IMG/VR virus record: IMGVR_UViG_3300005683_000038
Location: 7,465 to 71,464 of that record
Strand: one strand, 5' to 3'
DNA from: a virus
Taxonomy: Duplodnaviria; Caudoviricetes
Length of the DNA stretch: 64,000 bases
The translations under genes were made by a program, and so were the position numbers. Below are positions 20,558-33,351 of the stretch, in pieces (within the stretch, counting starts at the first letter, position 1; each line of letters begins with the position of its first letter). Below the pieces are notes generated by a model. The model was not told the DNA's origin and ran no database searches. It worked only from the letters and a program-made list of their open reading frames with translations.

Positions 20558-21577
20558 TTAGAGAATCACTGCGCCGAATTGCGCGTTGCGCTGCCACCAT
20601 TCACGCGTCTCCTTGGTGACGTATTGAAGAAAGCGGAACTTGTCAGCGCCGTAGTATTTCCACTGCGCCTCAAAAGTTGCTCGCGCGTATTCCTCCCAAG
20701 CCGACTTGTCGTGTGACACCAGATTCAACTGCGCCGCCTCCCAATGAAATCCGGCGGCACCCAAAGCCTTTTCGGTGCGCTTGAATGAGTCGCCGCGCAC
20801 ATTGATGACTTCAGCCCAACAGTGTTCAAGCCTCTCGGGCCGCAGCGCATTTGCCATGTCGCGCGCAAACTTTTCATAGTCGCGCTGGGGCAGGCTTGGG
20901 CAGATCATGCCGAACGTTCTGAATCCGTTGTCCTGCAACCAATGTATGGATTCAATGCGCTTCGATACCTTTGGCGTGCCTTGCTCGAACGCAGCGGCAA
21001 GGTTGTCGTCGAGTGTGCCGGTGCTGACTCCGTAGATAACTCTTGAGCGAGTGCCATGATACGCATAGTCGCTTGTGAAGCTTTTGCCTGCGTCAACTTC
21101 ATCCGCCAACGCTTGCGCTACCTTTGGAAGCAGATTGCTTTTGCTCAACAACCGGATGTCCCAATTCGTGAGTTCCAAAATCACCTTGCAGATTTCCACC
21201 GTCTCGCGAACCAAGTCCATGTTTGCCGCCACGTCAACCAGCGGTGAGGCGTAGATGACTTGCTTGCTCTGGCGAAACGCTTCCGGCTTGGACAGGATTT
21301 GCTTGCGGGAAATGTCCGCAGCGTTCTCCCGGCGAACAACGTGGCTCATATGCTTTCCAGTGACGCCATGATTCTTCAGCCAGTCCTGCTGTTTTTGCAT
21401 CATGGAATCAACATAGCAAAAACTGCACGAATACGCGCACGCGCTGCCAGCCGAGAATGTCATGCCGTCGCAAAGCAGCTTCTTGCTAAAGAGCGATTTG
21501 AAGTTGATGACGGTTTTGGCGGGAACGGTGAAGACTGGCTTGCCGGCCATTGTTTTTCTTTCAGATGTATTTTCCAT
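20558..21577 (-). CDS. Radical SAM protein, spore-photoproduct-lyase-like
   Basis: CAYSCSFCY (CxxxCxxC); LLSKS; GVSTGTLD. Confidence 0.85.
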   Translation of the reverse strand: MENTSERKTMAGKPVFTVPAKTVINFKSLFSKKLLCDGMTFSAGSACAYSCSFCYVDSMMQKQQDWLKNHGVTGKHMSHVVRRENAADISRKQILSKPEAFRQSKQVIYASPLVDVAANMDLVRETVEICKVILELTNWDIRLLSKSNLLPKVAQALADEVDAGKSFTSDYAYHGTRSRVIYGVSTGTLDDNLAAAFEQGTPKVSKRIESIHWLQDNGFRTFGMICPSLPQRDYEKFARDMANALRPERLEHCWAEVINVRGDSFKRTEKALGAAGFHWEAAQLNLVSHDKSAWEEYARATFEAQWKYYGADKFRFLQYVTKETREWWQRNAQFGAVIL

Positions 21578-21893
21578 GCCAATCTCTCTTTCTGGTTTTT
21601 ACGTGCAATGCCGCGTGTGTTGAATTTGTTTCAATTTGGATGTTTTTCATCCTGTTGTCCGATCTTACCCCATTTAAGTGATGTATGTGTTCGCTTGTAA
21701 GTAGTGGCCGTCTGATTTTTCTATCGGCAACTATTCTGTGCTCCGCTGCGTAGCCGCGCTTATCTGCGAGTGGATTGTCTGTGCCTACAAAAATGTAGAT
21801 GTATCCGTTGTGGCTTTTGCGTCTTCCGCCTTTCCAGTTCGGATTATTTTTACCAGACCTTGCCCCGTTCCATTTATGGTAATTCTTTGACAT
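21561..21893 (-). CDS. HNH endonuclease (phage HNH_3 type)
   Basis: NPNWKGG, GYIY, EHRIVA, IHHLNGVRSDNR.KN. Confidence 0.85.
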   Translation of the reverse strand: MSKNYHKWNGARSGKNNPNWKGGRRKSHNGYIYIFVGTDNPLADKRGYAAEHRIVADRKIRRPLLTSEHIHHLNGVRSDNRMKNIQIETNSTHAALHVKTRKRDWHGKYI

Positions 21894-21911
21894 GGCTGCA
21901 CATTTTGAAGC

Positions 21912-22002
21912 GTCTCCGTCCGCGTGTGCAGCGTTCGCTCGAAAGCGAGGCAACCCCACTGAAGGAGTTCGCGGACGGAGACAGATTGAATTTACGCTGC
22001 AC
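21912..22002 (-). ncRNA. Candidate pseudoknotted RNA leader of the HNH cassette
   Basis: Crossing perfect helices GTGCAGCGT/ACGCTGCAC (9 bp) and GTCTCCGTCCGCG/CGCGGACGGAGAC (13 bp), with two nested hairpins, one capped by UUCG. Confidence 0.55.
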
Positions 22003-22032
22003 GCAAACATGTTTTCATGTTGTTGCAAAAAG

Positions 22033-22062
22033 TCAACCGTTCATGGTGGTTCGTTCGCTCAT
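22033..22062 (-). pseudogene. 9-codon remnant (MSERTTMNG*) of the original radical SAM 5' end
   Basis: ATGA-coupled to the RusA-like stop; matches SERKTMAG at the current radical SAM N-terminus. Confidence 0.6.
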
Positions 22063-22523
22063 AACGGTATCGTGATTACGGCTCTTGGGTTGGCTTTGTC
22101 GTATGCCTTGGTGCTGGTGTTGATCCAAAGAAAAGTATCGTCAACCACAACGCCCGCGCGCTCCAAGATGTGAAAGATGGAGTCCAGCACGGCGGGCATG
22201 TCGCGGCGGCGCGCGTCGCCGGCAACGTAAGCTAGCGAAGCGTTCACAGGAACGGCGATGGCGGAAAAATCCGCCGGCAATTGCGCTCGCACTTCAGCAA
22301 CCTTCTCGTCGCGCCAACTAGCCCACTCAGCTTTGGGAATGTGCTTCCCTTGGCGCGTGACAATGTAGTTGTTTTTGCCGCCGCGAATCTGGCCGGTGAT
22401 GACAATGGTTAACTCGTGGGATCGTGGTGTCGTGGCGACAACTGGAGGAAGCTTGGGAATTGCCGTCTTGGTTTTGTTGACCCGTTTTTGCATGGTCACG
22501 AATTGTTCGATGGAGATTCCCAT
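22059..22523 (-). CDS. rusA: RusA-like Holliday junction resolvase
   Basis: GGKNN, RRDMPAVLDSIFHIL..AGVVVDD, NPRAVITI. Confidence 0.7.
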   Translation of the reverse strand: MGISIEQFVTMQKRVNKTKTAIPKLPPVVATTPRSHELTIVITGQIRGGKNNYIVTRQGKHIPKAEWASWRDEKVAEVRAQLPADFSAIAVPVNASLAYVAGDARRRDMPAVLDSIFHILERAGVVVDDTFLWINTSTKAYDKANPRAVITIPL

Positions 22524-22524
22524 A

Positions 22525-23136
22525 TCAATCAAAGGAGATGATCCGGCCATTGCCGGTCGGTGGGTTTGGTTGCGGAGAGGTCTCTTGCGTTGGCGCCGTT
22601 GCGGTCACTTCCGGCATAGACGACTCTAATACTTCAGCAATTTTCGCGTAGCGCACAACGTCATCAATGCGACCGTCTTCTTCGGCAAGTTGCATTTTTC
22701 TTTTTGCCGCCGCGATGTCCTGTCGCAATTGGTACTCGTGAAGCGTCTTGTACATGGCCTGAGCCTTTTGAAATTGAGTTGCCCAAGGCTCTTCAAGCGT
22801 CGCTGCCGTCATTGAAGTTTTCTTTGCATTGGATGCGGCCAGTTCCTTTTTGCGAAATGGCGGCTCCATCAATTCTTGCGCGGTCTTCAAAAAGAACCGT
22901 TTGTTTGGGTGGCTGATTTGCCGGCGATAGCGATAGATCAAGCGCCAGAGATACAGCGATTGCTTGTCAGTTATCTGCGGCGGCTGCGGGCCGTCGAGCT
23001 TGACGAACATTGTGCTCGCCATGCGCTTGTCGTAGGAAGCGAAAGGGAAGGTGACGGAGCGCAATAGCTTGGCTGCTTCAATCTCCATTGGCGTCATCTC
23101 GCGCCAAGCTGGTTTCAATGGCTTCAAATCACTCAT
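22525..23136 (-). CDS. Hypothetical protein
   Basis: 203-aa ORF in operon. Confidence 0.6.
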   Translation of the reverse strand: MSDLKPLKPAWREMTPMEIEAAKLLRSVTFPFASYDKRMASTMFVKLDGPQPPQITDKQSLYLWRLIYRYRRQISHPNKRFFLKTAQELMEPPFRKKELAASNAKKTSMTAATLEEPWATQFQKAQAMYKTLHEYQLRQDIAAAKRKMQLAEEDGRIDDVVRYAKIAEVLESSMPEVTATAPTQETSPQPNPPTGNGRIISFD

Positions 23137-31563: not shown

Positions 31564-33351
31564 GTGTTGATGAGATTGCTAGGACTAACGATTGAGCGCG
31601 CCACGCCAGAGTTGATGGTTCGAGGAACCGACTTTGAGGCGCGCTCAATCGTTTCAGCCTCTCAAGAACTCCCTACCAGCAGCACCGATCTCCAGATTGT
31701 CCGCCAGCAACGCAAGGCTGGGATGCGTGGTGATGAGATGGTTGATCGGGTAGTGATGTCTGATCCGCTTGGTGATTGGTATTTGGCTTTGCCGTCAAAG
31801 CTGGAGCCGAAGCAAGTGGATTCGATCATGCGGGCTTCGCTCGCCGGCAACATTTGGCAGTTCACCCAGCTGGTGCAGCGGATGATGGAATCGTGGCCGA
31901 TGTTGAAGAAATGCTCACATGAGTTGCGCCAAGCGGTGTCACGGGTCAAATACACCGTGGTTCCATTTGTTGAGAAAGAAGGAGAAGATCCGACTCCAAC
32001 CTCCGTCGAGAAGTCTGATACCGTGGCCCGGGCGATGCGGTCGTTTGAGATTGATCGCTTTTCAGATGAGGAGAGTTTTAACGGGTTGGTGTATGACATA
32101 ACCGACGCGGCGATTGTCGGGCTCTCCATCAGCGAAATCATGTGGCATCAGCAGGCTGATCCGGCGGGCACATTGGAGTGGTTGCCGCGGGCCAGTGCTT
32201 ATGTCCATCCGCGCCTCTATGCGTTTTCAAGCGACGGAAAGATAGGAATTGGTCGAAGCAACACGGATGATCCGATGTGGCAGCAGGTCCAAGCGGCCAA
32301 GCCAGTGTTGAACAATCCGATGAAATACATCGTAGCCAAGTTCAAATCAGGCAGCGGGTCCTGTCTGAAGAACGGGTTGGCGCGGTCGTTGTGCTGGTGG
32401 TGGGTGGCGGTGGTTTACGGACGTGACTTTGCATTGTCCTTCGCTCAGAAATTTGGCGGGCCGTTCCTCGACATTCCCTACCAAAGCGGTATTCCCAAGG
32501 AGGACATTGATAGACTCGAACGGCTCGCCAAGCGAGCTGCCAATCTCGGTTACTGCGTCCATCCAAATACGGGTGAAGTTAAGGTGACACCGGCTCAAAG
32601 CATGGGCGGTGAGAATCCACAAGTGGTGTTGATGCGGATGGCGGATGAGGCGTGTCAGATTCTGTTGCTGGGCCAGACGGCTTCGACCATGGGCACGCCA
32701 GGGATGCTCGGACAAGAGAATTCACGTGAGACGGTCCGCCGGGAGTATGTGGAAGGGTTTGCTGCTTGGGTGGCTGAGATCCTGACTGAGCAGTTTGCTT
32801 GGACGGTGGTGAAGCAGAATTATCACTTGTCCAGTGCGGTTACGGAACGACCGAAAGTCATTGCTGATTTCACCGAGACAGAAGACCCCATGCAGGCAGC
32901 GACGCGCTGGAGCACATTGCTTCACACGGGTCAGCCGTTCCATGCTGATGAGTTTTATGACGGGGTTGGTGCTCGTCAGCCCGAAGAAGGCGACAAAGTC
33001 GTCGTTGGTCAGAAGATTGGAACGATGGGGCCAGACGACTTCATTGTTACTGGCCAACCTGATTACGGTTACGGGTTTGATGACTGGGGCAATCCTATTC
33101 CTCCGCCTGAGATGCAGCAGATGGGGATGGTGCCTGGGCAAACGATGGGCGAATTCAACGGTCAGCAGATGATGGCACGCGATTCTCAGGTCCGTCGTGC
33201 GTTATCTCGCGCATCTCTCAGCGAACTCAACGCTCTGCGGGCAAAGGCTGCGGCCTGTGTCAAAGCGCGAGAGACAGGACACATCAACGGAGAGCACAAC
33301 GAATTTATCGCGGCCCTGCGCCAATTACAAGTCAACCATTCAAGACGATGA
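31564..33351 (+). CDS. Portal protein, DUF935/Mu gp29 family (true start may be downstream)
   Basis: DAAIVGLSISEIMW, GLARSLCWWW, FAQKFGGP, LLLGQTAST; position after terL. Confidence 0.85.
   Translation: MLMRLLGLTIERATPELMVRGTDFEARSIVSASQELPTSSTDLQIVRQQRKAGMRGDEMVDRVVMSDPLGDWYLALPSKLEPKQVDSIMRASLAGNIWQFTQLVQRMMESWPMLKKCSHELRQAVSRVKYTVVPFVEKEGEDPTPTSVEKSDTVARAMRSFEIDRFSDEESFNGLVYDITDAAIVGLSISEIMWHQQADPAGTLEWLPRASAYVHPRLYAFSSDGKIGIGRSNTDDPMWQQVQAAKPVLNNPMKYIVAKFKSGSGSCLKNGLARSLCWWWVAVVYGRDFALSFAQKFGGPFLDIPYQSGIPKEDIDRLERLAKRAANLGYCVHPNTGEVKVTPAQSMGGENPQVVLMRMADEACQILLLGQTASTMGTPGMLGQENSRETVRREYVEGFAAWVAEILTEQFAWTVVKQNYHLSSAVTERPKVIADFTETEDPMQAATRWSTLLHTGQPFHADEFYDGVGARQPEEGDKVVVGQKIGTMGPDDFIVTGQPDYGYGFDDWGNPIPPPEMQQMGMVPGQTMGEFNGQQMMARDSQVRRALSRASLSELNALRAKAAACVKARETGHINGEHNEFIAALRQLQVNHSRR

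Follow-up and report, generated by a model that had tools for sequence, protein, structure and literature searches.

An RNA leader with interleaved helices upstream of a phage HNH homing-endonuclease gene as a candidate translational switch

The window analyzed here is a 64,000-nt (64-kb) stretch of an IMG/VR virus record of 71.5 kb, the completeness of which is estimated at 77%. Its minus-strand genes, from about 26300 down to 3500, are densely packed, with frequent 4-nt overlaps. On this strand a DUF1376 primosomal protein is followed by a primase/helicase, two small proteins of no assigned function, a 163-amino-acid (163-aa) protein, an HNH_3 protein, and a radical-SAM-like protein. The reading frames surrounding the element described below are as follows.

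22059 to 22550, minus strand: upstream gene for a 163-aa protein with weak resemblance to RusA; the remnant ATG and the stop of this gene overlap (ATGA).
22033 to 22062 (stop 22035-22033), minus strand: remnant 9-codon open reading frame (ORF) MSERTTMNG-stop, what is left of the 5' end with which the radical-SAM-like gene originally began, severed after ATGAACGG.
21561 to 21893, minus strand: free-standing HNH_3 homing-endonuclease gene, 110 aa (PF13392; phrog_20891, E 3e-21).
20558 to 21577, minus strand: radical-SAM-like gene whose rebuilt start, MENTSERKTMAGKPV, has its ATG 14 nt ahead of the HNH stop.

RusA proteins were the only PDB matches to the 163-aa upstream protein (E 0.009), and searches of Pfam and PHROG gave no match to it. 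The 110-aa HNH protein retains all columns that are invariant among 12 aligned HNH proteins. Pfam and PHROG detected no second domain and no RuvC or RNA-binding part in it, and alignment with its relatives revealed no recognizable DNA-binding module in this minimal protein. The gap that precedes its gene, here called the leader, is among the very few noncoding stretches of a tightly overlapping operon; the distance from the remnant stop to the HNH AUG is 139 nt, most of which is filled by a folded element. A Shine-Dalgarno sequence was absent at most of the 47 gene starts examined, which lie in A/C-rich contexts such as accATG, and a scan of the leader for a promoter or Shine-Dalgarno sequence gave nothing recognizable to which a model could be anchored. 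The rarity of Shine-Dalgarno sequences across the whole window suggests a host with Shine-Dalgarno-independent initiation.

An earlier note on this DNA had described two crossing helices and two hairpins on the minus strand and had placed them between the remnant and the HNH gene. Repeat finding and inspection of the sequence recovered every one of these helices at its minus-strand coordinates. P1 joins 22002-21994 to 21934-21926 and P2 joins 21982-21970 to 21924-21912, with 9 of 9 and 13 of 13 Watson-Crick pairs, respectively. The order P1a-P2a-H1-H2-P1b-P2b is a genuine crossing in which P1 and P2 interleave over 21912-22002, and the placement was also borne out, as the element lies between the stop of the 9-codon remnant (22035-22033) and the HNH AUG (21893). 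In full, the transcribed strand reads P1a, 11 nt, P2a, H1, GCC, H2, P1b, a single A (21925), and P2b. The parts are listed here in the order in which they would be transcribed.

22006 to 22021, minus strand: weak AU hairpin AACAUG-AAAA-CAUGUU with two AUGs inside it (22018 and 22010).
21992 to 22018, minus strand: candidate mini-ORF MKTCLRAA-stop, read from the sequence, which passes through P1a.
21994 to 22002, minus strand: P1a, GUGCAGCGU, 9 nt, the upstream partner of strand J (duplex, -15.3 kcal/mol).
21983 to 21993, minus strand: linker L1, 11 nt, AAAUUCAAUCU.
21970 to 21982, minus strand: P2a, GUCUCCGUCCGCG, the 5' arm of the 13-bp closing helix (duplex, -26.8 kcal/mol), present in all predicted folds.
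21952 to 21969, minus strand: hairpin H1, AACUCC/GGGGUU, 6 bp with one G.U pair and a 6-nt loop, contiguous with P2a.
21935 to 21948, minus strand: hairpin H2, UCGCU-UUCG-AGCGA, 5 bp capped by a UUCG loop and directly followed by strand J.
21925 to 21934, minus strand: junction strand J, 10 nt, ACGCUGCACA, which can pair with P1a or with the start region.
21926 to 21934, minus strand: P1b, ACGCUGCAC, lying within J.
21912 to 21924, minus strand: P2b, CGCGGACGGAGAC, the 3' arm of the 13-bp helix, located by the repeat finder.
21903 to 21911, minus strand: linker L3, 9 nt, GCUUCAAAA.
21895 to 21902, minus strand: start-region 8-mer, UGUGCAGC, HNH positions -9 to -2 (duplex with J, -12.8 kcal/mol).

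The G.U pair of H1 is an A.C mismatch on the plus strand. The mini-ORF MKTCLRAA begins 15 nt past the remnant stop in a start context typical of this phage. An out-of-frame AUG (21903-21901) stands ten bases before the HNH AUG, where it opens a 9-codon ORF, MCSHVKELP (21891-21903, minus strand), and shares bases with the 5' end of the 8-mer that can pair with J.

The second pairing of J, between 21932-21925 and 21902-21895, is a feature absent from the earlier note. It comprises 8 perfect base pairs, and the 8-mer UGUGCAGC ends two bases before the HNH AUG (21893). With this 8-nt pairing in addition to P1, the 10-nt strand J has two partners, P1a upstream and UGUGCAGC downstream of P2. We evaluated these partners in 300,000 trials in which P2 was held fixed and the rest was shuffled. 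An upstream 9-mer partner arose in 0.5% of the shuffles and a downstream 8-mer partner in 1.1%, and both flank partners fell on one inner segment in only 2 of the 300,000. This double flank match of J is the main argument against an accidental arrangement, and it is weakened somewhat because the second partner was found after the fact. Complements of J elsewhere in the 64 kb occur at the background rate only, about one per 8-mer per strand. The 8-bp pairing would cover HNH positions -9 to -2 but crosses P2, and no Shine-Dalgarno sequence is there to be covered. Pairing between the leader and the radical-SAM start region was no better than in shuffles.

The crossing itself was compared with 200 Markov-shuffled 64-kb sequences in which inverted repeats within 150 nt were counted. 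Perfect inverted repeats of at least 13 nt occurred at 0.125 per shuffled sequence. The proposal that helices of this length would hardly cross by chance held for the complete arrangement, as a crossing 13+9 pair was found in 1 of the 200 shuffled windows and the real window has a single one. However, it held less well for the crossing helix alone, since about 4% of the strong hairpins in shuffles also have a crossing 9-mer, as do 2 of the 56 strong repeats present in 1.26 Mb of real DNA. The arrangement at this locus is real and nonrandom.

The minus-strand leader RNA folds with -48.6 kcal/mol (z -3.5, or z -3.7 without P1a), compared to z -1.4 for the plus strand. Folding of the leader as single-stranded DNA (ssDNA) likewise reaches significance (z -3.1). 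In the nested optimum, P2 closes H1 and H2 to form a three-way junction (-39.7 kcal/mol), and this structure dominates every nested prediction; the alternative with P1, H1, and H2 reaches -28.1 kcal/mol. When folding of the growing transcript was followed with the nested model, P1 was optimal once P1b had been transcribed, and P2 displaced it after P2b had emerged. Two other noncoding gaps in the same operon showed no unusual folding. Elsewhere in the window, positions 31570-31670 of the plus strand hold a very strong hairpin (-48.1 kcal/mol, z -7.0) built on a 16-nt perfect inverted repeat (31587-31602 and 31638-31653), at the extreme 5' end of a long ORF (31564-33351) of the head module.

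Pseudoknot energies and sterics were estimated by hand, with no pseudoknot-aware program. H2b, J, and P2b follow one another without interruption over 28 nt, and with J:P1a formed, H2, P1, and P2 would stack to about 27 bp. For all helices to coexist, the 11-nt L1 would have to span P1 and P2, approximately 60 Å, and the GCC linker would have to span P1, approximately 25 to 28 Å; by these estimates both spans would be feasible only if the linkers were almost fully extended or the helix ends frayed. The J:start alternative has a classical H-type geometry, with J directly adjoining P2b (0 nt) and 9 nt looping across the 13-bp P2. Because four simultaneous helices would be sterically strained by joints of 1, 11, and 3 nt, the geometry favors a switch, or a leader that folds in sequence, over a static knot, and alternative or sequential pairing appears more likely than simultaneous helices.

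The remnant ORF MSERTTMNG is coupled to the upstream 163-aa gene via ATGA, and the radical-SAM gene restarts 480 nt past the remnant as MENTSERKTMAGKPV. We compared this arrangement with six radical-SAM relatives from IMG/VR (54 to 58% identity). Among relatives free of a homing-endonuclease gene (HEG), L009 begins MRTTMNGKPV and L007 begins MSARTTMGGKPV. The DNA ATGAACGGCAAGCC continues unbroken in L004, L005, and L009, and L006 has ATGAACGGCAAACC. The G+C content is 0.40 to 0.49 over 21500-21899, compared to 0.52 to 0.65 in most neighboring 100-nt windows. The remnant and restart, the unbroken HEG-free relatives, and the dip in G+C together indicate that the leader, the HNH gene, and the new radical-SAM 5' end constitute one inserted block.

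Approximately 21543 to 22036, minus strand: inserted block consisting of the leader, the HNH gene, and the replacement radical-SAM 5' end, with the flanks ATGAACGG and ATGGCCGG.

Judged from these sequence comparisons, the HNH cassette split the radical-SAM gene after ATGAACGG and provided it with a new start. A reading of the whole insert as a long-range ribosome bypass or an intron was rejected, because the N terminus of the host gene is duplicated, not interrupted. For a group I intron in particular, Rfam gave no intron match, and the rebuilt start MENTSERKTMAGKPV duplicates the remnant instead of continuing it. A 197-aa HNH protein (40% identical, E 5e-16) lies at the same site in L008 (3427-4040), where it overlaps a radical-SAM start that likewise reads MAGKPV; this was the only same-site cassette found in another phage. 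The L008 cassette lacks a leader gap and any inverted repeat of at least 8 nt close to the HNH start, and its folding is unremarkable (z 0.1), indicating that a folded leader is not obligatory for this endonuclease lineage.

Both endonuclease-associated alleles, in the window and in L008, read MAGKPV, and the endonuclease-free alleles read MNGKPV (L004, L005, L006, and L009) or MGGKPV (L007). The N-to-A change at the radical-SAM start may be the mark of a cleavage-resistant homing site. In L010, a 174-aa HNH_3 ORF (126-650) lies in a different frame inside a long ORF (1-1926; 641 aa, open at the 5' end of the contig), and in mycobacteriophages tblastn with the HNH protein also gives matches that coincide with annotated DNA methyltransferase genes. 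Nesting within such genes, or fusion to them, may be frequent in this HNH clade.

Relatives of the leader were sought in several collections. A blastn search against 50,697 phage records (INPHARED) returned seed-length chance matches only, as did exact and gapped leader patterns in IMG/VR, where all matches were attributable to chance. In GTDB genomes, the patterns gave 106 matches, not far from the approximately 70 that we estimate for chance, and rechecking of all fetched loci with blastn-short revealed no copy of the leader. One 17-nt match, in L163, lies within the coding region of a gene and was dismissed as chance. The JGI metagenomes, reached through the HNH protein, held no leader copy, and the records of five radical-SAM relatives gave nothing when searched with the leader. 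None of 80 HNH_3 loci taken from the family alignment had the leader or a radical-SAM or RusA-like neighbor. The HNH protein itself has no close relatives in IMG/VR or GTDB genomes and one distant relative in the JGI metagenomes. Among 5.8 billion proteins, its best relatives were at most 52% identical, besides an identical protein; the identical 110-aa protein is called on two other contigs.

The element matched no Rfam 15 family, in agreement with the earlier note, which had assigned it to no known class and proposed an Rfam search. The only Rfam matches were generic plus-strand hairpins, namely, P35 (18.6 bits versus a gathering threshold of 70) and mir-9242 (16 versus 62). ARAGORN found no tRNA- or tmRNA-like element. 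The bases preceding P1a, GAAAACAUGUUUGC, contain no slippery heptamer of the form X XXY YYZ as would be expected for a -1 frameshift pseudoknot. P2b is followed by GCUUCAAAAUG, and the scan of the leader for an intrinsic terminator found no terminator-like site. No sigma-70-like site for an internal promoter was present on the minus strand of the leader. Two DNA-level origins were also considered and rejected. GTGCAGC direct repeats flank P2 as might the target-site duplication of a miniature inverted-repeat transposable element (MITE), but they do not abut the inverted repeats and the putative ends are not inverted. The leader as a copy of the remnant or homing site was dropped, as the identity amounts to only 9 nt (p ~0.045).

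The reading best supported by these results, which we hold tentatively and at slightly less than even confidence, is a translational switch. We propose that the element is a three-way-junction mRNA leader in which J toggles between its upstream partner and the start region, thereby gating translation of the endonuclease and of the coupled radical-SAM protein; this proposal may well be correct, and we would not put it higher than that. The points counted in its favor are the perfect 13-, 9-, and 8-nt pairings, the improbability of these complementarities, the minus-strand asymmetry, and the cassette context. Counted against it are that the leader is a single sequence with no homologue found and that the same-site L008 cassette has no such leader. 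Among the functions listed in the earlier note, the translational switch was retained, on the strength of the start-codon-adjacent partner of J, the strand-specific fold, and the documented HEG leaders, whereas the ribozyme, guide RNA, and ssDNA signal were not. The ssDNA mobility signal was set aside because the element is single copy and has no HUH or transposase partner.

In the proposed mechanism, the element would be the 5' leader of the mRNA of the inserted HNH cassette, with a three-way-junction core in which P2 closes H1 and H2. J would act as the toggle, pairing either with P1a, 11 nt upstream of P2, or with UGUGCAGC, 9 nt downstream of P2. Pairing of J with the start region would form an H-type pseudoknot with P2 and bury the initiation region, locking positions -9 to -2 against the 13-bp helix, and pairing of J with P1a would leave the start region open. 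P1 would form first during transcription, and J would pass to the start region if P1a were occupied or removed. Candidate triggers are a transcript with its 5' end beyond P1a and a ribosome on the mini-ORF MKTCLRAA, which runs through P1a, so that ribosomes coming down from the upstream operon could mask P1a. As most starts in this phage are without a Shine-Dalgarno sequence, initiation should depend on an unstructured start region, and burying that region should therefore block loading of the 30S subunit. Since the HNH stop lies just past the radical-SAM start, the gate probably sets radical-SAM expression too. We infer the pairing in vivo, the identity of the ON state, and what flips the switch. 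A more specific version of the switch, which we consider doubtful, is a gate for Shine-Dalgarno-independent initiation in which J forms either of two mutually exclusive pseudoknots around one closing helix and is flipped by ribosome traffic on the mini-ORF from the upstream operon, so that the mobile cassette would tie expression of the nuclease and of the host gene to upstream translation.

Other explanations would require only part of the element, or none of it, to function as RNA. The nested part could be functional by itself, with P2 closing H1 and H2 as a stability, processing, or insulating element and with P1 and J:start idle; it might then be an RNase III-type substrate, a protector of a 5' or 3' end, or a terminator that has no U tract and sets the cassette apart from the operon upstream. 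P2/H1/H2 does dominate the nested predictions (-39.7 kcal/mol), a crossing 9-mer comes by chance with about 4% of strong hairpins, and the H2-J:P1a-P2 stack, as a helix of about 27 bp, would have a length typical of RNase III substrates. A seg-type gene has also been described with very stable upstream hairpins that leave the ribosome-binding site uncovered (PMC2988022). However, a nested element would leave the perfect match of J to both flanks unexplained, and the leader scan found no terminator-like site, so this explanation is judged unlikely. We consider it less probable still that the repeats are a nonfunctional DNA scar, produced by template switching or illegitimate recombination at insertion of the cassette or a rearrangement and still too recent for decay. 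P1, P2, and J:start together comprise 30 pairs, every one of them Watson-Crick and none G.U, and long pairings of this purity fit a young DNA-level inverted repeat equally well. The element also lies 34 nt from the left insertion junction, folds significantly as ssDNA (z -3.1), and is unique, with no conserved relatives in the collections searched; in addition, a 9-nt direct repeat, GAGCGAACG, joins the remnant (22060-22052) to H2/J (21940-21932) on the minus strand. However, the complement halves of the 23-nt block P1b-A-P2b are swapped and 11 nt apart, which rules out a single fold-back event, and the third copy, abutting the start codon, would require a further event. The similarity between remnant and leader is marginal (89 of 2,000 shuffles), and both the G.U pair of H1 and the asymmetry of the z-scores favor the transcribed strand.

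Three further explanations carry lower probability. The leader could be coding, with translation starting at AUG 22010 or UUG 22028 in the HNH frame to give a 149- to 155-aa enzyme, the helices being incidental or a translational speed bump. No stop interrupts the HNH frame over the 49 codons between 22040 and the annotated AUG, the context of AUG 22010 is A-rich like that of the other starts of this phage, and relatives carry N-terminal extensions of 40 to 90 aa. However, an open run of 49 codons has a chance of about 10% by our estimate, the extension is shared by no protein among 5.8 billion, and it is without the NUMOD-type or zinc-finger motifs that relatives carry N-terminally. Homology to PHROG and Pfam families begins about five residues before the annotated AUG, and the 110-aa form is the one called on the other contigs, which makes the coding explanation improbable. 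A DNA operator or target-site decoy, in which the HNH protein would bind its own leader DNA and repress itself as I-TevI does through its operator, seems very improbable. An I-TevI operator site is mentioned in a review (PMC2988022), and GAGCGAACG of the presumed homing-site region in the remnant recurs in the leader (21940-21932). This repeat similarity is marginal (p ~0.045), though, and an operator would leave the interleaved helices unexplained and would have to be bound by a minimal HNH protein with no recognizable DNA-binding module. Slightest of all is the chance that the element is a self-cleaving ribozyme of a new kind or a guide or partner RNA of the HNH nuclease, both of which the earlier note had entertained. 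The crossing order P1a-P2a-P1b-P2b is that of hepatitis delta virus (HDV)-like ribozymes and a nuclease gene adjoins, but no Rfam ribozyme or HEARO family matched even at E 10 and there is no conservation. The core required for an HDV-like fold is absent, with only 1 nt between P1b and P2b, where HDV-like ribozymes hold P4 and the catalytic J4/2. As for a guide RNA, the 110-aa HNH_3 enzyme is a single domain with no RuvC or RNA-binding part and is not IscB-like.

HEGs need expression that is high enough for them to spread yet harmless to the carrier phage. To our knowledge, the few HEG leaders studied, all from T-even phages, use simple hairpins over the Shine-Dalgarno sequence. If the translational switch is correct, the leader would represent a different solution for HEG control in a phage mostly without Shine-Dalgarno sequences, and a compact, designable three-partner RNA toggle. 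As the cassette severed the radical-SAM gene from its original translational coupling, the leader may also set the level of that protein. Because the element is an orphan singleton with no comparative support, it is at present of value as a candidate open to testing rather than as an established motif.

Among known systems, HDV-like ribozymes share with the leader the nested double-pseudoknot order P1a-P2a-P1b-P2b, in which P1 and P2 interleave. In contrast, the leader has no P3/L3/P1.1 and no J4/2 catalytic cytosine, both of its hairpins precede P1b, and it has no Rfam match. It differs from the HEARO/omega-RNA of IscB in giving no HEARO match (E up to 10) and in its partner, which is not a RuvC + HNH protein of about 400 aa or more. 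The word "pseudoknot" is used here as a description of topology. In attenuators such as ermC or trp, control follows from 1:2 versus 2:3 pairing. The leader resembles these switches in that J can pair with only one of its two partners at a time and a mini-ORF lies across the upstream partner. However, both pairings here cross a constitutive 13-bp helix, which makes either state a pseudoknot; neither a stalling signal nor a terminator is evident, and the mini-ORF is a candidate only. Structure-mediated translational repression has been documented for I-TevI, I-TevII, I-TevIII, segB, and Aeh1 mobE (Edgell, Gibb and Belfort 2010, PMC2988022). The T-even leaders are simple hairpins over the Shine-Dalgarno sequence that are bypassed by an internal late promoter, whereas the leader described here is a three-way junction in which J has alternative partners on either side of the closing helix, with no Shine-Dalgarno sequence, no recognizable internal promoter, and no sequence relationship to them. 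One mark of this T-even type of HEG control, a functional class and not a sequence family, is a stable structure immediately upstream of a free-standing or intron-borne HEG, and such a structure is present here. As in the T-even phages, a stable RNA structure stands directly upstream of a phage homing-endonuclease gene in a polycistronic operon, and complementarity reaches the translation initiation region, where its presumed purpose is restraint of a potentially harmful nuclease.
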